Of a stretch of 64,000 nucleotides of DNA, positions 39,562 through 46,661 are shown in pieces. Source of the stretch: a bacterium (GTDB lineage Bacteria > Electryoneota > Electryoneia > Electryoneales > Electryoneaceae). The position numbers and the translations under genes are program-made. The stretch lies in NCBI GenBank assembly GCA_963669175.1, contig OY769902.1, positions 2,752,001-2,816,000 of the forward strand, in the 5' to 3' direction. The notes below the pieces were generated by a model that saw only the letters and a list, made by a program, of their open reading frames with translations, searched no databases and was not told where the DNA came from. The stretch's first letter is position 1; each line of letters starts with the position of its first letter.

Positions 39562-40182
39562 ATGAACGTAAAAGTCATTGCTATTCTGGTTGTCGCGTTT
39601 GTCCTCAGTTTTGTGGGCAACTACTTCATTTTGAAGTCGACGACCACGTGGACGGAAGAAGACATCATCGCCGAGTACGGTGAACCGGAACTTGAAGAAG
39701 CGCCGAAAGAACTGGAGCTGTTCAGCGATTTGTCCGGTGATGAGCCGCCCATGACGGAAGAAGAGCAGGTTTCCGTAATTGACTCGCTGCAGAAACAGAC
39801 AGAAGTCAAGATGGAAGCTGCGGTCGATTCCGTTGTGGAAGCACGAACCCGTCCGATGCAGGTCGCCATGGACAGTACGCGGCAGGAACTACAGAACGCG
39901 CGCGAGTTGGCTGGTGAACTTGGTGATTTGCTGGCATCGATCACGGCAGTACAGGACAGCATTGACCAGAGTCGGGCGACACGGCTTGCCAAGATGCTGG
40001 AAAGCATGAAGCCGGATGCCGCTGCAACCATCCTCAATGGCCTGAGTAGCCAGGTTGCCGCACAATTGCTGATGAATATGCGTCAACGCAATGCGGCGAA
40101 GATCTTGGCTGAATTACCACGGGATCGTGCGGCCGCGGTGGCTCGTCACCTGTCACGTGCGTACTGGGAGTCCACCATATGA
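39562..40182 (+). CDS. MotE/FlbB/YlxF-like protein (MgtE_N-like domain)
   Basis: N-terminal TM, coiled coil, LAKMLESMKPDAAATIL...MRQRNAAKILAEL; position after fliJ. Confidence 0.75.
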   Translation: MNVKVIAILVVAFVLSFVGNYFILKSTTTWTEEDIIAEYGEPELEEAPKELELFSDLSGDEPPMTEEEQVSVIDSLQKQTEVKMEAAVDSVVEARTRPMQVAMDSTRQELQNARELAGELGDLLASITAVQDSIDQSRATRLAKMLESMKPDAAATILNGLSSQVAAQLLMNMRQRNAAKILAELPRDRAAAVARHLSRAYWESTI

Positions 40183-43094
40183 GCGCGGCGGCTAACATAT
40201 CACGATTCCTGCAATTGTTGAAAGGACAGCAGGATTCAACGCCGCAACGTAGAGCGGGCCGGCGTGGGTTCCGCCAGACACTTGAAACTGTGCAGGGACA
40301 ACGTACACAGCGTCCTTTAGCCCTGGTGGTAAAGGGAAGGGAAGTATCGTTCAAGAATGTGCCCTTCTTCGATACAGATGGTAACAAACTGCAAATTCAG
40401 TCCTATTCCGATGGCGGCAAAACAGTAGTTGACGTAAAAAAGTCCGGGAAGAATGCCAAGCGCAGCTTGTCCAAACCAACTACTCCCGGCATGAAGCTCG
40501 AAGCCAAACTCAGCGGTAACAGCCAGGTTGATCAGGCAATTCCGAATCTGCGGGATCATGTGCGTGAACACCTGAAGCAGACTCGCGAACTCAGGCATGG
40601 TATCCTGTCCGGAGAGTTGGAAACCCCCGGCACAAAAGGTACACGTCTGAAGAAAAAACTGGTCGAAGAAAACGGTTCCGAGTTGGATAAGCTTGTCGCC
40701 AAGTTGGAAAATGTACGCGGTGATAACCAGAACACTGCGGTTTCACTTGCGGCCCTGGGAATGCGGATATCACGCAACTCGGCTGCCGGAGATGATGGAA
40801 AGCTGGTCATGTCAGATAGTGTGAAGTCAGCATCAGGCAACGGGAAGGACGATGCCTGGGTGGGTAAAGTTATCGATGCTAATGATATTGATGCGATCAA
40901 GCAGCTCAAGAAAGAGCTTCCCAACCCGTTGGAAAGGCGAGTTTCTGCCTTTACGCCACGGCGAGTGGATAAGAACGGCAATGCTTTAAGCGATTCCAGA
41001 ACATCAGCAAAGAATGAAAACGGTACGGGTGAAAAGCAGGTCGCAAGCGTTTCGAAGCAGAGCAATGGCAAGGCAGAAAACATTGTTCCCTTGAAAGAAA
41101 CGGTTTCGAATAAAGCGGAAAGCGGAACAGCACAAGTTGAGCAGAAAAGCAGTGAAAAAAGCACCATAGCCGTTTCACTTCGCCAATCGCAGGGGAAGGT
41201 CAGCGCACAGACCGGAGACGATTCGCGCATTGTCAGCAAGATACAGGTGAAACAATCATTCCCTGAAGTCCCAGGTGATGATATTATCCGTCAGCGTGAA
41301 CAGCTCAAAGCCTTTACCCGTCATCTTACCCAGGGAAAGGCCAATGCCGCAAATGGGACTTCCGCTGGCGAAGGCACGACAAAAACGGCATCGCAACCAC
41401 GCAACGACATTGATGATTCTCAGATCAAACGCTTGGTAAAGGATGCGGTCAAGCAGGCCGATCGTGGAGCCGGGCAGGAAACGAAACAATCGCTCGAAGC
41501 GGAAGCCTACCTGAAGAAGCGTAATGGTCGTCCCAACCGGATAACCAGTGAACTGTCAACACAGCGAAACGCAGCTCCATCAAAAACAGCGCTTTCAGAT
41601 TCAGAATCCAGCAAGACCCAATCCACGCTGAGTGAGCTTGCCGATACAACTCAACGCAGGCCGTCACGATTGACACGCCAGGCTGTACAGCGTGCATTCC
41701 CGAGAAACGGTAACGGTAGCAACGACACTACAGCGAAAGCGGAAGCGAAGCAGGATACCGAAACTGTAAAATCGACAGTTAAAAATCAGGACAACACACA
41801 GGCAACAACGCCCGTGGTTTCGAAGCAGGCAAAACAGGGAAAAACCGTTGCCGAGAAGCCGGTACAGGGAAAATCGGAACATAATCCTGTCAGCCAGCAG
41901 GCGAAAAATGATGGCGCTTCGAAGTCCGATTTCATCACACCGGTAGAAGTGAATACCAAACCTGCATCCTCGAACGGGAATACTCCTATCCAGTCGAAGC
42001 CACAAGTGGCGCCACAACCGCAATCTCAGCCACAGGCTCAAGCACAGGTTGAACAGTCCAGGGCAGCTAAACCACAACCCCAGGCTGCACAACAACCGCA
42101 ATCTCAGCCTCAGAAAGTTCAGTCACAGGCTCAAGCACAGACTGAACAGTCCAATATGGCCAAATCGCAGCCACAAGTGCAGCAAGTCCAGCAGAATCAA
42201 ACCCAAGCCCAACAGACGGCTTCACCTACTTCACAGACTGCACCAGATAATGCGAAACCGGGGGAGCTTCTGTCGGACGCGTGGCGCGTGGGCAATTTGA
42301 AGGCAGATGACGCCAACTTGAAGACCGATAGTCGCCGTGGGTTGCGTGAAGTGATTACTGATACCTGGCAGAACGTCCGTGGACGCCTTTCGCGGAAATC
42401 CAATGGCAAAGAATCGCAGCAGGGGGAGAGCAACCGTGACAATTCCGGTCAGTCCTCAGATAATGCCAATGCGATGAAAACAGCACAGGCGGCGAAGAAT
42501 GAACAGGTGAATCAGGCTGCCTTCAAGGAAGCTGTCCAGGCGCAACAACAGCATTCAACCACGCAGACCACGACTGCTGCCACAACGGCAAAAACAGCAG
42601 AAGGCTGGCAGTCATCACTTTTGAACAACAATGCGGAATCCAATGCTGAAAGCGTCAAGAATCTGAATGATGTTTTGCAGAAGATTCAGGGACGCGCCGA
42701 GTTGTTGAAAGCCGGAGAATCGGCCAGTATTCGTATCCTGCTGAAACCGAATGACTTGGGAGCAGCGTCAGTCCTGATCAAGCGTAGCGACAAGAAGTAT
42801 GATATCGTTGTTACTACGGATAGCAAGGAAGCTGCGAAGCATATCGAAGCGCAGACTGCACAGTTCAAGGAACAGCTTTCCCAGTCCGGCATACAGCTTA
42901 ACAAGTTTGATGTGGATACCGGTGAACATCGTCAGCAGACTCGTGGTGAAGCTGCCGGCGATCAGGAAGGCCGGAATCGTGGCAACCGTGACCAGGGACA
43001 GAATGCACGTGCCGAAGAACAGCAGCAGGAAGTAGAACAGTATCATGCGCGTAGCCGTACCTTGGGCACCAATACGGTTGAGTACGTTGGATAA
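40179..43094 (+). CDS. fliK: flagellar hook-length control protein FliK (971 aa)
   Basis: Low-complexity Q/S/T/A-rich body; C-terminal T3S4 domain IRILLKPNDLG...LSQSGIQL; lies upstream of flgD. Confidence 0.85.
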   Translation: MSAAANISRFLQLLKGQQDSTPQRRAGRRGFRQTLETVQGQRTQRPLALVVKGREVSFKNVPFFDTDGNKLQIQSYSDGGKTVVDVKKSGKNAKRSLSKPTTPGMKLEAKLSGNSQVDQAIPNLRDHVREHLKQTRELRHGILSGELETPGTKGTRLKKKLVEENGSELDKLVAKLENVRGDNQNTAVSLAALGMRISRNSAAGDDGKLVMSDSVKSASGNGKDDAWVGKVIDANDIDAIKQLKKELPNPLERRVSAFTPRRVDKNGNALSDSRTSAKNENGTGEKQVASVSKQSNGKAENIVPLKETVSNKAESGTAQVEQKSSEKSTIAVSLRQSQGKVSAQTGDDSRIVSKIQVKQSFPEVPGDDIIRQREQLKAFTRHLTQGKANAANGTSAGEGTTKTASQPRNDIDDSQIKRLVKDAVKQADRGAGQETKQSLEAEAYLKKRNGRPNRITSELSTQRNAAPSKTALSDSESSKTQSTLSELADTTQRRPSRLTRQAVQRAFPRNGNGSNDTTAKAEAKQDTETVKSTVKNQDNTQATTPVVSKQAKQGKTVAEKPVQGKSEHNPVSQQAKNDGASKSDFITPVEVNTKPASSNGNTPIQSKPQVAPQPQSQPQAQAQVEQSRAAKPQPQAAQQPQSQPQKVQSQAQAQTEQSNMAKSQPQVQQVQQNQTQAQQTASPTSQTAPDNAKPGELLSDAWRVGNLKADDANLKTDSRRGLREVITDTWQNVRGRLSRKSNGKESQQGESNRDNSGQSSDNANAMKTAQAAKNEQVNQAAFKEAVQAQQQHSTTQTTTAATTAKTAEGWQSSLLNNNAESNAESVKNLNDVLQKIQGRAELLKAGESASIRILLKPNDLGAASVLIKRSDKKYDIVVTTDSKEAAKHIEAQTAQFKEQLSQSGIQLNKFDVDTGEHRQQTRGEAAGDQEGRNRGNRDQGQNARAEEQQQEVEQYHARSRTLGTNTVEYVG

Positions 43095-43283: not shown

Positions 43284-43445
43284 TTAAAGCTAAAGTGGAG
43301 GCTGAAGAATTGCTGGAGCTATTCTCGATACACTAGCAGGGGCATGCTGAACAATTCAGCAAAAAACAGGTTCCCCTCGAACGTCGGAGATAGTAAAGCA
43401 CATTCAGCCGTGTAACAGCATACCTCAGGAAAGGAGGTGATTTGG

Positions 43446-44177
43446 ATGACTGATTTTCAGTCTATCAATGGACTGATCAGCGATGTGTCATCGCTTACCA
43501 CCGAGACAGTCGGGAACAGTACGCTCGATAAGGATGCGTTTCTGCAACTCCTGGTTGCCCAGTTGAAAGTTCAGGATCCAACCAACCCGCAGGATGCGAC
43601 AGAGTTTACCTCGCAGATTGCCCAGTTCACAGAGCTGGAACAGTTGACGAACCTGAACGAAACGATGGTAACAGCGGCTCAGACGGATGCGATCCTTGCT
43701 CAATCCATCAACAACACTCTGGCTTCGACCATTATCGGGAAGGATGCCAAGGTTGAGGGTGGTGAAATCCAGCTCACGGATGGTGAGGCGAGCAAGGTTG
43801 GCTACGATCTGACGAATGCTGCCCAGACCCTGACACTCGAGATCACGGATTCGAGTGGGAATGTTGTCCGAACCATTACCGAAACCGACGTCAATGCCGG
43901 TGAAGGAACCATCGAGTGGGATGGCAAGGATGAAAAGGGCAACGATCTGGCAGACGGCAGCTATTCGGTTTCTGTGACCGCGACCAGCTATGATGGCACG
44001 GAGAGCGAAGTTTCGCCATTGTTGATCGGTACAATCGAAGCGGTCCGGTACACATCGGACGGCGCAGTGTTGATCGTTGATGGTGTTGAAGTAGCGTTTG
44101 GCGATGTCCTGGAGATTCGCGACCCTGATGATCCAACCAATGTTCTCTCCGATGCATTGACTTGGTTGGGAGGGTGA
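43446..44177 (+). CDS. flgD: hook capping protein FlgD
   Basis: LDKDAFLQLLVAQLKVQDPTNP, QIAQFTELEQ, WDGKD..G..LADGSY. Confidence 0.95.
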   Translation: MTDFQSINGLISDVSSLTTETVGNSTLDKDAFLQLLVAQLKVQDPTNPQDATEFTSQIAQFTELEQLTNLNETMVTAAQTDAILAQSINNTLASTIIGKDAKVEGGEIQLTDGEASKVGYDLTNAAQTLTLEITDSSGNVVRTITETDVNAGEGTIEWDGKDEKGNDLADGSYSVSVTATSYDGTESEVSPLLIGTIEAVRYTSDGAVLIVDGVEVAFGDVLEIRDPDDPTNVLSDALTWLGG

Positions 44178-44178
44178 G

Positions 44179-44580
44179 ATGAACTGGGATATCGACCGGA
44201 TTCAAGGCAGCCAGGGACCGCTTCCGGTTCAACCGGTAAAAAGTCCATCGGTCGATTCACGTAAAACCGGTACGAAAGAGTCGTTTCAGGATGTATTGAG
44301 CCGAACCGGGCAAAAAGTTTCACAACCGGATGTAACCATCTCTTCGCATGCTTCGCAGCGTCTGATGCAACGAGGGATTTCGCTTGACGCCAGCGATATG
44401 CAGAAGATTGATGAAGGGCTGAACCGAGCTGCTGAGAAAGGCGCAAAAGAATCGCTGTTCATGCTTCGGGACCTTGCCCTGGTAGTAAGTGTGGAAAACC
44501 GCACTGTAATTACCGCGTTGCAGGGTGACAGCGCAAAGAACAACGTGTTTACCAACATTGACAGTGCAGTAGTTTTGTAG
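44179..44580 (+). CDS. flagellar operon protein, TIGR02530 family
   Basis: ISSHASQRLMQRGI, KGAKESL, LVVSVENRTVITA, NVFTNIDSAV; position between flgD and flgE. Confidence 0.9.
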   Translation: MNWDIDRIQGSQGPLPVQPVKSPSVDSRKTGTKESFQDVLSRTGQKVSQPDVTISSHASQRLMQRGISLDASDMQKIDEGLNRAAEKGAKESLFMLRDLALVVSVENRTVITALQGDSAKNNVFTNIDSAVVL

Positions 44581-44590
44581 AGTATCAGGA

Positions 44591-44716
44591 AGGGCTGGAC
44601 CTCATCGAGGAAGCCCTCGGCTTCGCCGACCGATCGACGCGAAGCCACCGTAAACCGGGTGAGGAGGAAAACTCCCACCGGAACGGTCCGTAACACGGAA
44701 TCGCGTTGAATACGCG
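44591..44716 (+). ncRNA. candidate structured cis-regulatory RNA leader of flgE
   Basis: Five consecutive hairpins fill the intergenic region: agggct-gga-cctc-atc-gagg-a-agccct; ggcttcgc-cgaccgatcgac-gcgaagcc; a long accgt...acggt stem-loop; tccgt-aac-acgga; cgcgt-tgaat-acgcg. Confidence 0.55.
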
Positions 44717-44738
44717 TTTCATCAGGAGGAAAACGATT

Positions 44739-46661
44739 ATGATGCGGTCATTGATGTCCGGCGTATCCGGAATGGTTAACCATCAGCTCAAGATTGATGT
44801 CGTCGGGAATAACCTGGCAAACATCAACACAGTGGGATTTAAGAGCGACCGGATTAGTTTCGCCGATCAGATTTCACAACTTTTGAGCCCGGGAAGCGGC
44901 ACACGTAACAATTATGGTGGTGTCAATCCCGTACAGGTAGGTCTTGGCATGAAAGTTCAATCCATTGACACGAACTTTGCCCAGGGGTCACTCGAATCGA
45001 CGGGTTACGCCAACGACCTCGCTCTGCAAGGCAACGGGTTCTTCATCGTGCGCAATGGTGAGGATACCTACTTCACTCGTGCAGGCAACTTCAATATCGA
45101 CGCAGATGGGAACCTGACAGCCAATGACGGCTTGTCGATTATCCAGGGGTGGCTGGCGGATGAAACCGGTGAGTTGTCCCCCTCGAACAGTGTGACTGAT
45201 CTTGTTCTGCCGATTGATATGAAGATGTCGCCGAGGGCTACTGATAATGTGGTTCTGTACAGTAACCTCGATTCGACAGCCACTAATGCCGATGCAACGA
45301 TGACGGCTGTCGGTTCTTCCGGCGCAACATCCGTTTCCGGCACTGCCACCGATGGTATTGGTGGCACACACAGCATTGCTATCACGGGCGCTCAGGCAAC
45401 CCAGTCCACCGGCACCTCCGCTACCGGCGGTATGACGGTAAGCGATTCCCTGGCGGCGCTTGGTGTAACAGATGTATCCGATTTCACTGTCACCGTTGAC
45501 AATGGAACCTCGGACGCAGCTTCTTACACGATCACCGGGCTTTCAACCACCAGCACCGTTGGTGACCTGGTGAATGCGTTGAATGACCAGGTTCATGGCG
45601 CCACCTTTGAGCTTTCCGGCGGCAATATCGTCGTCACGCGTGACTATGCCGGTGATGGCGCTTCCTACAACGTACACATGGAAGATGCCGGTACTGGTGA
45701 TATCACAGCTTCCATCTTTGGCGCTGCGACATTTGACGCCAACAGCGGTACGGCTTCAACCTTGTCTGCTGTCGATACCTTTACTGATAACGCCACAGGC
45801 ACTGTTCGTACGGAACAGTTGTCCTTTGCAGCGGATGACCGTACCGGTCTGATGACTGAATTGAGCGGTCTGGGCGGCGGCGGTGTTACCATCCTTTCCG
45901 GGAATGGCTTCACCGCGACTGCAGGCGATCCGTTGCTCGTCACAACAGAAGATACCAGTCACACAACGTCCATTTCTGTCTACGATTCCATGGGCAAAAC
46001 CCATAACCTGTCCATGACGTTCACCAAGACAGGAACCGAGAACCAGTGGGCCTGGGAAGCGGAAGTTGGTGAACCGGCTGTCGCTATCAGCGGCAATACC
46101 GGCCTGGTCAGCTTCAACGAAGATGGCTCGCTTTCAACATTCTCATACGACAACAGCGCAACCGAGTTTTCATTCAATCCCGGCAACAATGCCGCTGATG
46201 TAAATATCGCTTTCAGCCCGGGGTCAACCGGCATGTTCGATGGTATTACCCAGACAGATTCCGCTTTCTCAACTCACGCAGTTGATCAGAATGGCTATGG
46301 AATGGGTGAGCTTGAAGACATCATGATTGACGAGAACGGTGTTATAGTGGGCAGCTTCACCAATGGTCAGAATCAGGATCTGGCTCAGATCGCAGTGGCT
46401 GATTTTGCCAATGAACAAGGGCTGAAGCGTGTGGGTGGCAACCTGTACGAACAGTCTGTATCATCCGGCGATCCCACCATCGGACAAGCGCAGACGAACT
46501 TCAATTCGTCGATTCAATCGGGTTATCTCGAGATGTCCAATGTGGATATCGTCGAGGAGTTTACCGAACTGATTACCGCCCAGCGTGGTTTCCAGGCGAA
46601 TGCTCGTATCGTCACAGTTTCTGACCAGGTACTTGCTGAAGCCACAGCATTGAAGCGGTAA
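44739..46661 (+). CDS. flgE: flagellar hook protein FlgE (long form, 640 aa)
   Basis: MMRSLMSGVSG, GNNLANINTVGFK, DLALQGNGFF, YFTRAGNF, VYDSMG, LEMSNVD, AQRGFQANAR. Confidence 0.96.
   Translation: MMRSLMSGVSGMVNHQLKIDVVGNNLANINTVGFKSDRISFADQISQLLSPGSGTRNNYGGVNPVQVGLGMKVQSIDTNFAQGSLESTGYANDLALQGNGFFIVRNGEDTYFTRAGNFNIDADGNLTANDGLSIIQGWLADETGELSPSNSVTDLVLPIDMKMSPRATDNVVLYSNLDSTATNADATMTAVGSSGATSVSGTATDGIGGTHSIAITGAQATQSTGTSATGGMTVSDSLAALGVTDVSDFTVTVDNGTSDAASYTITGLSTTSTVGDLVNALNDQVHGATFELSGGNIVVTRDYAGDGASYNVHMEDAGTGDITASIFGAATFDANSGTASTLSAVDTFTDNATGTVRTEQLSFAADDRTGLMTELSGLGGGGVTILSGNGFTATAGDPLLVTTEDTSHTTSISVYDSMGKTHNLSMTFTKTGTENQWAWEAEVGEPAVAISGNTGLVSFNEDGSLSTFSYDNSATEFSFNPGNNAADVNIAFSPGSTGMFDGITQTDSAFSTHAVDQNGYGMGELEDIMIDENGVIVGSFTNGQNQDLAQIAVADFANEQGLKRVGGNLYEQSVSSGDPTIGQAQTNFNSSIQSGYLEMSNVDIVEEFTELITAQRGFQANARIVTVSDQVLAEATALKR

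Follow-up and report, generated by a model that had tools for sequence, protein, structure and literature searches.

The spacer between TIGR02530 and flgE in the window (the whole 64,000-nt stretch of DNA analyzed here) carries a two-hairpin RNA element, P1-P2 (44587-44650), which is a member of a widespread family of structured leaders, undescribed as far as we found. The explanation we prefer, to which we give about an even chance, is that the mRNAs of hook, rod and filament genes share this new kind of leader and that the TIGR02530 protein is its likely trans-acting binder or nuclease.

The flgD-TIGR02530-flgE locus and the fold of its spacer

The window has the gene order flgD, TIGR02530, flgE, with TIGR02530 between the other two (Table 1; the upstream position of flgD was checked in the window). 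The flgD reading frame opens at GTG 43437, and the sequence places ATG 43446 8 nt past an AGGAGG at 43432-43437. TIGR02530 ends with the TAG codon at 44578-44580, leaving a spacer of 158 nt (44581-44738) before the flgE ATG, which begins one base ahead of the end point given in the preliminary description. Neither a sigma-70-like promoter nor a terminator-like site was found between 43300 and 44900, and the flgE ribosome-binding site lies after the hairpins, as that description had said.

Table 1. Features of the flgD-flgE region, in window coordinates.
Feature	Position	Strand	Basis
flgD (hook cap or scaffold protein)	43446..44177	+	Pfam FlgD, FlgD_ig, FLgD_tudor
TIGR02530 / PF12611 'flagellar operon protein', 133 aa	44179..44580	+	NCBIfam and Pfam match
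Conserved two-hairpin leader motif (P1 and P2, short flanks)	44587..44650	+	Covariance models
P1 hairpin	44591..44617	+	Minimum-free-energy fold and alignment
P2 hairpin	44619..44646	+	Minimum-free-energy fold and alignment
P3 (44648-44686), P4 (44687-44699), P5 (44702-44716)	44648..44716	+	Fold; lineage-specific hairpins
flgE Shine-Dalgarno sequence AGGAGG	44724..44729	+	Sequence read
flgE (hook protein, 640 aa)	44739..46661	+	Pfam Flg_bb_rod, LlgE_F_G_D1, FlgE_D2, Flg_bbr_C

The minimum-free-energy fold of 44578-44745 consists of five hairpins, P1 to P5, at -67.3 kcal/mol compared to -50.0 ± 5.0 kcal/mol in 200 dinucleotide shuffles (z = -3.46), none of which folded as low. The coordinates and anatomy that had been claimed for the spacer hold. 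P1 is built of an outer helix and an inner CCUC/GAGG helix, separated by a 3 x 1 internal loop (GGA / A). P2 is an 8-bp helix of free sequence closed by a 12-nt loop with the consensus N-GA-NN-GA-NN-GA-N, which in the window reads CGACCGAUCGAC (44627-44638); both loops are present as first described. Within P3, CUCC pairs with GAGGAGGAAAAC (44661-44672), a decoy Shine-Dalgarno sequence.

P1 and P2 form a covarying RNA structure kept across phyla

Motif searches were carried out with two covariance models, R1 and R2, which scored the window motif at 73.7 and 67.1 bits, respectively. With R2, the window motif was the sole match at E ≤ 1 in the 5.4-Mb genome. R1 gave a second match in the same genome (23.9 bits, E = 0.025), which we took as chance; R2 did not recover it, and the sequence around it looks coding. 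The motif was found just 3' of TIGR02530 at all 30 loci in the window's phylum and at 78 of the 80 loci in other phyla, and at the remaining two it was seen with search filters off. flgE follows TIGR02530 at the same frequencies (30/30 and 78/80). A similar hairpin pair after TIGR02530 genes of Firmicutes had been mentioned in the preliminary description; this was correct, and the pattern extends far beyond Firmicutes. For the majority of the 80 loci outside the window's phylum, roughly 12-40 nt separate the end of the motif from the flgE start, so that P3-P5 have no room there. The conserved hairpins are P1 and P2 only, a motif of ~64 nt, and P3-P5 are lineage-specific; of the five-hairpin leader initially proposed, the fold stands in the window, but its conservation is confined to the first two hairpins.

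Among the 30 sequences from the window's phylum, 92.8% of alignment cells were paired, compared to 75.1% in shuffles, and the covariation score was 0.513 compared to 0.192; for both measures none of 500 shuffles reached the observed value. Sliding the pairing partners by 1-3 columns brought pairing down to 35-52%. Across 92 sequences from many phyla, in an alignment fitted to the model, 92.6% were paired and 15 of 17 pairs showed changes on both sides; all eight P2 pairs have changed on both sides. The GG, CC and GG of P1 are invariant or nearly so in these 92 sequences. P1/P2 is a real covarying RNA structure, kept downstream of TIGR02530 genes across phyla, and the conservation and covariation anticipated for these loci were both found.

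We consider it scarcely credible that the motif acts as DNA, as a promoter, operator or recombination site. The hairpins are inverted repeats, as such sites can be, but the helices carry compensatory substitutions, helix and loop lengths vary, and G-U pairs are restricted to the sense strand: in 22 of the 92 sequences a U-G takes the place of the P1 Y-R pair, which fits the sense strand alone. Also, neither a sigma-70-like nor a sigma-28-like site matches at the linked copies. We rejected sigma-54 and sigma-28 sites as readings of the conserved bases, since the distances between these bases change with the lengths of helices and loops and no sigma-28 pattern lies upstream of any of the 92 linked copies. 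Judged by eye, the loops do not seem to fit a kink-turn, a sarcin-ricin loop or a guanidine-II-like motif either.

Copies of the motif away from TIGR02530

A Bacillota sample of 151 genomes yielded 149 motif matches, 50 of which do not adjoin TIGR02530. For 42 of these 50, a FlgE/F/G-family match is listed downstream (adjacency judged by eye); four of the other eight lie before flgG-like genes, two before flagellin genes and two after flgF/G-like genes. Sporomusa has one copy between flgF and flgG and another between a second flgD and flgE, the latter pair without TIGR02530 between them. The motif is thus not merely an appendix of TIGR02530: unlinked copies precede flgG, flgF, flagellin and second flgE genes, a finding new here. 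The flgE-controlling module put forward in the preliminary description needs widening accordingly, as the element is confined neither to flgE nor to the surroundings of TIGR02530.

The pattern TAAA-N14-17-NCGATA, resembling a sigma-28 promoter, ends 8-33 nt upstream of 6 of the 15 unlinked copies examined, compared to 0.06 expected; it was found upstream of none of the 92 linked copies. In these six cases a sigma-28-type transcript is predicted to begin close to the motif, whose hairpins might simply stabilize the downstream message, as a 5' stem-loop at a sigma-28 start or, elsewhere, after processing, with no dedicated binder. flgE needs more product than its operon neighbors to satisfy hook stoichiometry, and this higher demand would also suit a stabilizer. 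We nevertheless find simple stabilization improbable, as GG, CC, GG and three GA dinucleotides stay the same from phylum to phylum in helices whose sequence is free to change.

Co-occurrence of the motif and TIGR02530 by genome

In the Bacillota sample, 99 genomes had both the motif and the protein, one had the motif only, six the protein only and 45 neither, so that 99 of 105 TIGR02530-positive genomes carried the motif. At all six protein-only loci the motif was seen with filters off, at three of them weakly (17-21 bits). Among 101 genomes of a second phylum the motif was found in four, TIGR02530 in the same four and FlgE_D2 in 50. The preliminary description had asked whether flagellated genomes lacking the gene also lack the motif. 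They do, almost without exception: only 1 of ~19 such genomes in the Bacillota sample and 0 of 49 in the second phylum carried it, and none of the 10 of the ~19 that were re-searched with laxer filters gave a match. The exception, G074, is a many-contig assembly with a motif copy and no TIGR02530 match. Of six TIGR02530-less relatives in the window's phylum, the five searched (G005, G016, G020, G022 and G031) also gave no flgE match and no motif and are therefore uninformative on dissociation.

Motif and TIGR02530 thus co-occur almost perfectly by genome, yet linkage confounds this co-occurrence: TIGR02530 and the flgE copy of the motif lie side by side on the chromosome, and joint inheritance is expected. 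The sampled genomes are also related, and the number of independent gains or losses of the pair may be small. The motif could accordingly be a cis-regulatory leader with another partner (a protein, an RNase or the 30S subunit), and TIGR02530 a hook-assembly or exported protein that accompanies it through linkage and shared descent. We rate this as possible, though on the unlikely side. Within P1, an anti-Shine-Dalgarno-like ACCUC pairs with a Shine-Dalgarno-like GAGGA, and the 3' strand of P1 reads GGARG, again Shine-Dalgarno-like, in nearly all of the 92 sequences, which would suit such a partner; the modest fold match of the TIGR02530 core and the low-confidence model of its N-terminus, described below, point the same way. 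Against it stand the 50 unlinked copies in TIGR02530-positive genomes, compared to one in a negative genome, and the near-absence of the motif from the flagellated TIGR02530-less genomes of two phyla. CsrA, the obvious GGA binder, also fits poorly: PF02599 had no match in the window's own genome (G000; 95.9% complete, one contig) or in G043, both of which bear the motif; PF02599 matches were present in G041, G042 and G044.

The TIGR02530 protein

The window protein scored 109.9 bits against NCBIfam TIGR02530 (cut-off 83.2) and 46.3 bits against PF12611 (cut-off 21.1), the latter through a C-terminal match. Residues 1-45 are modeled with low confidence, with pLDDT below 50 over most of residues 1-32. 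The core, residues 46-133, is predicted by AlphaFold2 at pLDDT 91.6 and pTM 0.82, with the element order strand-helix-helix-strand-strand-strand-(helix)-strand. DSSP assigned to this model a bridge at 8-9 (two residues, below the 3-residue strand cut-off), helices at 11-19 and 26-41, strands at 46-51, 54-59 and 64-70, a helix at 71-74 and a strand at 84-87. The predicted core thus has the arrangement that defines the RelE/ParE fold, strand-helix-helix followed by three antiparallel strands.

The preliminary description had likened this protein to RelE-fold and DUF4258 proteins, and the comparison holds in part. The best 12 VIA-align matches of the core were all of RelE/ParE type (63-76 residues aligned, rmsd ~3 Å), including PrpT, RelE1, ParE1, HigB2 and YafQ, but their Z of 4.5-5.8 is below the value of ~8 under which the tool warns that a match may be a mere common arrangement of elements; RegB of phage T4 gave Z 3.5, and a second structural comparison had a similar outcome. 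Foldseek searches of the PDB with both models returned nothing at E ≤ 0.001, and a PDB sequence profile search gave only weak unrelated matches (CHMP3, E ~0.09). The motifs quoted earlier, SHASQRLMQRGI and VVS..NRTVITA, are found in the translation, and an N-terminal HAxxRxxxRxI stretch is common to TIGR02530 protein and DUF4258. The DUF4258 (PF14076) gathering score of 25 bits was not reached by the window protein (13.6 bits, E = 0.086), which matched the first 16 model positions only. Weak DUF4258 matches occurred in 15 of 30 members, with a best E of 0.003, and when 30 TIGR02530 proteins were compared with 28 DUF4258 proteins in hhalign, the probability was 70% over only 23 columns, covering the first strand and first helix.

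Across 90 sequences H57, R61, R65, K87 and N107 show little or no variation. The median pI is 8.4 for the core and, in the window's phylum, a nearly neutral 6.65 for the full-length protein. The low-confidence N-terminal ~45 residues would also suit a flagellar export substrate or an assembly factor without an RNA role. A control search of 14 well-known genomes, which included E. coli but not Salmonella, found no TIGR02530. One tblastn match came from a phage record, an unannotated sequence from a faecal sample labeled 'Bacteriophage sp.'. A phage G homologue is reported in 10.1101/2024.12.16.628780. Our literature search found no paper on the function of TIGR02530, PF12611 or DUF3766.

Comparison with known RNA families and regulatory systems

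No Rfam name was known for the motif at the outset, and no Rfam 15 family matched it, whether in the window (E ≤ 10) or in 13 other, diverse loci (E ≤ 1). Two known motifs, Termite-flg and flg-Rhizobiales, also sit upstream of flagellar genes. Both are candidate cis-regulatory RNAs; Weinberg et al. 2010 (PMC2864571) lists them as RF01729 and RF01736, with narrow ranges of taxa. P1-P2 is likewise a candidate cis-regulatory RNA, but unlike them it corresponds to no Rfam family: in five motif-bearing genomes the best Termite-flg score was 19.7 bits compared to a gathering score of 40 bits, and no motif site was matched. Our literature search likewise gave no paper describing, for these lineages, an RNA element that precedes flgE or flgG. 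Neither 'flg' nor 'hook' occurs in the main texts of PMC5737381, PMC11109978, PMC8632094 and PMC6429828, and their sole 'flagell' mention is an aside on the raiA motif; their supplementary lists might name the element otherwise.

A riboswitch aptamer for a motility-state small molecule, controlling translation of flgE, flgG and flagellin, would share several features with the motif: invariant unpaired bases on two helices of free sequence, a Shine-Dalgarno sequence close by and, in the window's family, a downstream anti-Shine-Dalgarno segment paired with that of flgE, resembling an expression platform. But the motif is small and shows neither a junction of several helices nor a conserved pseudoknot; a conserved terminator is absent, as is, from compact versions, any conserved sequestering helix. 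The strict tie to one protein family suggests a protein ligand rather than a small molecule, and we regard a riboswitch as very improbable.

CsrA-FliW controls flagellin mRNA (hag in Bacillus subtilis, flaA in Campylobacter). The regulation we propose would resemble it in having a small protein, here TIGR02530, act on the structured 5' leader of a flagellar axial-protein mRNA, with GGA-containing loops near the Shine-Dalgarno sequence and synthesis possibly coupled to assembly. It differs in that the motif consensus has two defined hairpins and a GA-NN-GA-NN-GA loop, and in that the main target is the hook gene, not flagellin. Autoregulatory ribosomal-protein leaders offer another parallel, as the protein is encoded beside the structured mRNA site it is proposed to bind and the helices are free in sequence while the loops are conserved; here the motif precedes the next gene, flgE, and unlinked genes rather than the protein's own start. 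Work by Bonifield et al. from 2000 is said to describe post-transcriptional control of FlgE in Salmonella, which would be a precedent, in another lineage, for hook-protein control responding to the stage of assembly; to our knowledge, that case has not been tied to a defined RNA element or protein.

The TIGR02530 core shares the strand-helix-helix-strand-strand-strand order of RelE/ParE toxins (DUF4258 and BrnT included) and of RegB, an endoribonuclease that cuts GGAG in Shine-Dalgarno sequences; P1 carries GGARG on its 3' strand. Unlike these toxins, TIGR02530 has no adjacent antitoxin gene, its neighbors being flgD and flgE, and it is fixed in flagellar operons rather than part of a mobile toxin-antitoxin pair. 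It also has an extra C-terminal strand with an invariant T-x-IDSA.

Proposed mechanism and implications

In the mechanism we favor, the motif would act from the 5' untranslated or intercistronic region, always that of flgE and in some lineages also those of flgG, flgF and flagellin, the window copy being transcribed within the flgD-TIGR02530-flgE message. The unpaired invariant bases (GGA / A in P1, GA-NN-GA-NN-GA in P2) would form the surface by which a trans-acting factor recognizes the leader. The likeliest such factor is the small protein encoded just upstream, with its predicted core similar to RNA-interacting proteins of RelE/ParE type. By binding the leader, or by cutting it at a specific site, TIGR02530 would set the translation or stability of hook, rod and filament messages apart from the rest of their operon. 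What the analysis shows is the structure of the RNA, how widely it is conserved, which genes it accompanies and that it occurs in the same genomes as TIGR02530; we infer TIGR02530 as the partner of the motif, and translational or stability control as the outcome.

A more elaborate version, which we think unlikely, makes TIGR02530 a domesticated RelE/RegB-like RNA-recognizing protein that binds or cuts GGARG in P1 and governs a P1-P2 regulon (flgE, flgG, flgF and flagellin) in many phyla. Its low-confidence, possibly disordered N-terminus would let the flagellar export apparatus remove the protein once the basal body is competent, so that assembly would license hook and rod translation. Such a system would be a hook-stage counterpart of FlgM/sigma-28 and FliW/CsrA.

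The hook is built from about a hundred subunits, yet their gene sits deep within a long operon whose other products are needed in few copies; what is understood of the amount and timing of the subunit comes mainly from enterobacteria, where transcription and export are controlled. In several other phyla, and in many of the flagellated Bacillota, genes for hook, rod and filament are preceded by a strongly covarying RNA element, which together with TIGR02530 makes a directly testable candidate protein-RNA pair. If the proposed pairing is true, it would assign a function to TIGR02530 / PF12611 and enlarge the set of known cis-regulatory RNAs by a widespread family, and it may show how a toxin-type RNA-binding fold was recruited for the control of organelle assembly.

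A conserved RNA element downstream of the TIGR02530 gene

A flagellar cluster of the fla/che type lies on the window's + strand and includes the small TIGR02530 (PF12611) gene between flgD and flgE. The region given in the preliminary description ends one base past the first base of the flgE ATG. RNA folding of 44578–44745 placed five hairpins in the TIGR02530-flgE spacer at the positions described previously, with an energy of –67.3 kcal/mol (z = –3.46); 200 dinucleotide shuffles gave –50.0 ± 5.0 kcal/mol, and not one of them folded as well. Neither a sigma-70-like promoter nor a terminator-like site was found from flgD to flgE in the window. The FliK-like protein of the cluster (971 aa) has a C-terminal Flg_hook domain (residues 844–920) as its only recognised domain, and its remainder is long, low-complexity and rich in Q, A, S and K.

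Features of the flagellar cluster and of the flgE leader in the window
Feature	Position	Strand	Remark
FliK-like gene	40179–43094	+	
flgD	43446–44177	+	
TIGR02530 / PF12611 gene	44179–44580	+	133 aa
TIGR02530-flgE spacer	44581–44738	+	158 nt
flgE	44739–46661	+	ATG at 44739
flbD, motA, motB		+	same cluster
P1	44591–44617	+	RNA fold of 44578–44745
P2	44619–44646	+	RNA fold of 44578–44745
P3	44648–44686	+	RNA fold of 44578–44745
P4	44687–44699	+	RNA fold of 44578–44745
P5	44702–44716	+	RNA fold of 44578–44745

TIGR02530 was present in 35 of 41 genomes of the window's phylum, and in all 30 loci examined from this phylum flgE followed it after a spacer of 70–376 nt that contained both P1 and P2. We scored P1 (outer helix, GGA / A loop and inner helix, in the register given by RNAalifold) together with P2. 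Across the 30 loci, standard pairs filled 92.8% of cells compared to 75.1% in shuffles, and the covariation score was 0.513 compared to 0.192, with 0 of 500 shuffles reaching either value. Sliding the partners by 1–3 columns dropped pairing to 35–52%, and all eight P2 pairs showed changes on both sides.

For other phyla, a degenerate-peptide scan with one genome per species yielded 593 TIGR02530 relatives, from which 80 loci were kept; by record titles these came from Bacillota (including Paenibacillus, Sporomusa, Anaerovibrio and Pelotomaculum), Geobacteraceae, Eremiobacterota/Vulcanimicrobiota, Armatimonadia, Cloacimonadota, Actinomycetota, Chlorobiota and others. A covariance model trained on the window's phylum alone (R1) found the motif, P1 and P2 with short flanks, immediately downstream of TIGR02530 and in the sense orientation in 78 of these 80 loci, weakly or partially in four (L112, L043, L100 and L074). 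The two loci missed, L058 and L083, scored 26.4 and 30.7 bits with a broader model (R2) when filters were off. In 92 matches, 92.6% of cells were paired and 15 of 17 pairs changed on both sides, counts that lean towards the model because the alignment was fitted to it. P1 contained nearly fixed GG (91 and 92 of 92 sequences), CC (91 each) and GG (92 and 91), with a 3' strand of consensus GG-A-R-G, and the 12-nt P2 loop read N-GA-NN-GA-NN-GA-N, with every G and A present in 80–89 of about 89 sequences. In many lineages at most a few bases separated the stop codon of TIGR02530 from the start of P1. The Y-R pair between the fixed P1 bases was U-A in 38 sequences, U-G in 22 and C-G in 19, and since U-G pairing works on the sense strand alone, the motif is an RNA rather than a DNA element.

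Of the five-hairpin leader proposed earlier, P1 and P2 are thus conserved and covarying, but P3–P5 were not conserved in sequence, and tails in the window's family formed different hairpins. P3 in the window pairs a decoy, GAGGAGGAAAAC (44661–44672), with CUCC; the decoy is a near repeat of the real flgE Shine-Dalgarno context, AGGAGGAAAAC (44724–44734), and could keep an anti-Shine-Dalgarno segment occupied. In most window-family relatives the flgE Shine-Dalgarno has a predicted pairing partner, an (A)UCCC segment after P3, in an arrangement that resembles an expression platform. In the tails of L014, L015, L018, L021, L022, L023, L025 and L026, this predicted partner lies after P2, 3' of a small CCGG hairpin. 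In L014, L018, L021 and L025 the motif was separated from the TIGR02530 stop by 100–250 nt, a stretch rich in short tandem repeats of GTCGAAA-, GAGACTT- and GAGACGA-type units.

The RNA element is real and widespread. It is also undescribed within the literature and databases searched: no Rfam 15 family matched it in the window (E ≤ 10) or in 13 diverse loci (E ≤ 1), and Termite-flg (RF01729) matched no motif site in five motif-bearing genomes. A literature search covering main-text passages returned nothing on such an RNA or on the function of the TIGR02530 protein, and 120 homologues were named only "flagellar operon protein", "TIGR02530 family flagellar biosynthesis protein", "flagellar biosynthesis protein", "flagellar protein" or "hypothetical protein".

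Co-occurrence of the motif with TIGR02530

The preliminary description had proposed asking whether the motif is missing where TIGR02530 is missing, and the outcome supports a link between the two. In 151 genomes sampled from the phylum to which an Aneurinibacillus genome belongs (the Bacillota sample; FlgE/F/G-family genes in 126), 99 had both motif and protein, 1 the motif only, 6 the protein only and 45 neither, which places the motif in 99 of 105 TIGR02530-positive genomes and 1 of about 19 flagellated negatives. With filters off, the motif appeared in all six protein-only loci at 17–44 bits (three weak, 17–21 bits). The sole motif-only genome was a many-contig assembly (G074) in which the copy precedes a flgG-like gene. 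Laxer filters revealed no motif at E ≤ 0.1 in 10 flagellated TIGR02530-negative genomes of the sample, and the flgD-flgE gap was 0–30 nt in 4 of 6 flagellated negatives examined. Among 101 genomes from the phylum of a Citrifermentans genome, the four with the motif were the same four with TIGR02530, and 0 of 49 flagellated negatives had it. These counts come from related, non-independent genomes, many of them multi-contig and possibly incomplete, and physical linkage ties the flgE copy to TIGR02530.

Whole-genome searches with R2 found copies of the motif elsewhere. The Bacillota sample gave 149 matches in 100 genomes, 99 just 3' of TIGR02530 and 50 elsewhere (coordinates compared by eye). Among the matches listed, 42 of these 50 unlinked copies had a FlgE/F/G-family gene 25–400 nt downstream on the same strand, mostly of 260–300 aa, i.e. 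flgG- or flgF-like; of the other eight, four preceded flgG-like genes, two preceded flagellin and two came right after a flgF/G-like gene but before an unrelated one. These last two copies (L120 and L124) are followed by genes that, by eye, encode a membrane protein and a glycosyltransferase resembling WecB/TagA, and they may be relics or have other targets. Sporomusa malonica (L113 and L114) has a second flgD-flgE pair with a motif copy, but no TIGR02530, directly between the two genes, and a third copy between flgF-like and flgG-like genes. An Eremiobacterota genome had a copy upstream of flgF and flgG, and another genome one copy before a flgG-like gene and one after fliW-csrA. The L116 copy, after fliW-csrA and a sigma-28-like promoter, precedes an ORF starting MFRGLHT whose frame does not go on like a normal rod protein; faulty sequencing or decay of the gene may explain this. 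The window's genome has one real copy only.

A sigma-28-like site (TAAA-N14-17-NCGATA) ended 8–33 nt before the motif in 6 of 15 examined unlinked copies, compared to 0.06 expected from shuffles, and in 0 of 92 TIGR02530-linked copies. From the gene contexts and these sites, the element is a leader for mRNAs of axial proteins, located between cistrons in some cases and at the predicted start of sigma-28-type transcripts in others. The earlier reading as a flgE leader is partly supported but too narrow, and should be widened to hook, rod and filament genes. Unlinked copies numbered 50 in TIGR02530-positive genomes compared to 1 in a negative genome. Comparative genomics supports a putative motif-TIGR02530 tie, for which we consider the location of the unlinked copies more telling than the overall counts.

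The TIGR02530 protein as a candidate partner

The full-length protein model had a low-confidence N-terminus and a confident core. The core model (residues 46–133, from a 90-sequence alignment; pLDDT 91.6, pTM 0.82) had the order strand-helix-helix-strand-strand-strand-(helix)-strand. Foldseek returned nothing for the models at E ≤ 0.001. With VIA-align against 48,161 chains, the best 12 matches were all RelE/ParE-type (PrpT, RelE1, ParE1, a Helicobacter toxin, PfiT, the RelE-like domain of Cami1, HigB2, YafQ and ParE2 among the top ones; 63–76 residues aligned, rmsd mostly about 3 Å, 2.7–4.8), at Z 4.5–5.8, and T4 RegB scored 3.5; values below about 8 possibly reflect a common arrangement only. 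Pfam matches to DUF4258 stayed below threshold and occurred in 15 of 30 members, the best at E = 0.003; when profiles were compared, 28 DUF4258 proteins from related genomes matched with 70% probability across 23 columns that make up the HAxxRxxxRxI stretch. The DUF4258/BrnT/RelE resemblance noted earlier is, on these results, real but weak, and the modelled core likely belongs to the RelE/ParE-type fold class. S55, H57, A58, R61, R65, K87, G88, S92, N107, T112, T125, I127, D128 and S129 were invariant or nearly so in 90 sequences, and the median core pI was 8.4. A homologue with 47% identity also occurs in the phage-collection record MT835480.1 (37633–37881; labelled "Bacteriophage sp.", from faecal samples), and a preprint (10.1101/2024.12.16.628780) reports one in phage G.

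Judged from sequence comparisons, the chances are evenly poised that TIGR02530 is the trans-acting partner of the motif. A different partner seems less likely; CsrA, for one, is not an obligate partner, because its Pfam family (PF02599) had no match in two genomes that carry the motif, the Citrifermentans genome and that of the window (flagellated; a single contig, 95.9% complete). The remaining probability is spread over a riboswitch, a plain stabiliser and a DNA element.

The effect of the motif could be repression or activation, through binding or cleavage. In most of the 80 other-phylum loci the flgE Shine-Dalgarno adjoins the motif, whose end lies about 12–40 nt upstream of the flgE start, so that binding at the invariant loops could block the ribosome-binding site or open it up. 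Cleavage could also detach flgE from the message upstream, with a hairpin left at the new 5' end. A further layer in the window's family may come from the pairing of (A)UCCC with the flgE Shine-Dalgarno and, in the window itself, from P3 with its decoy.
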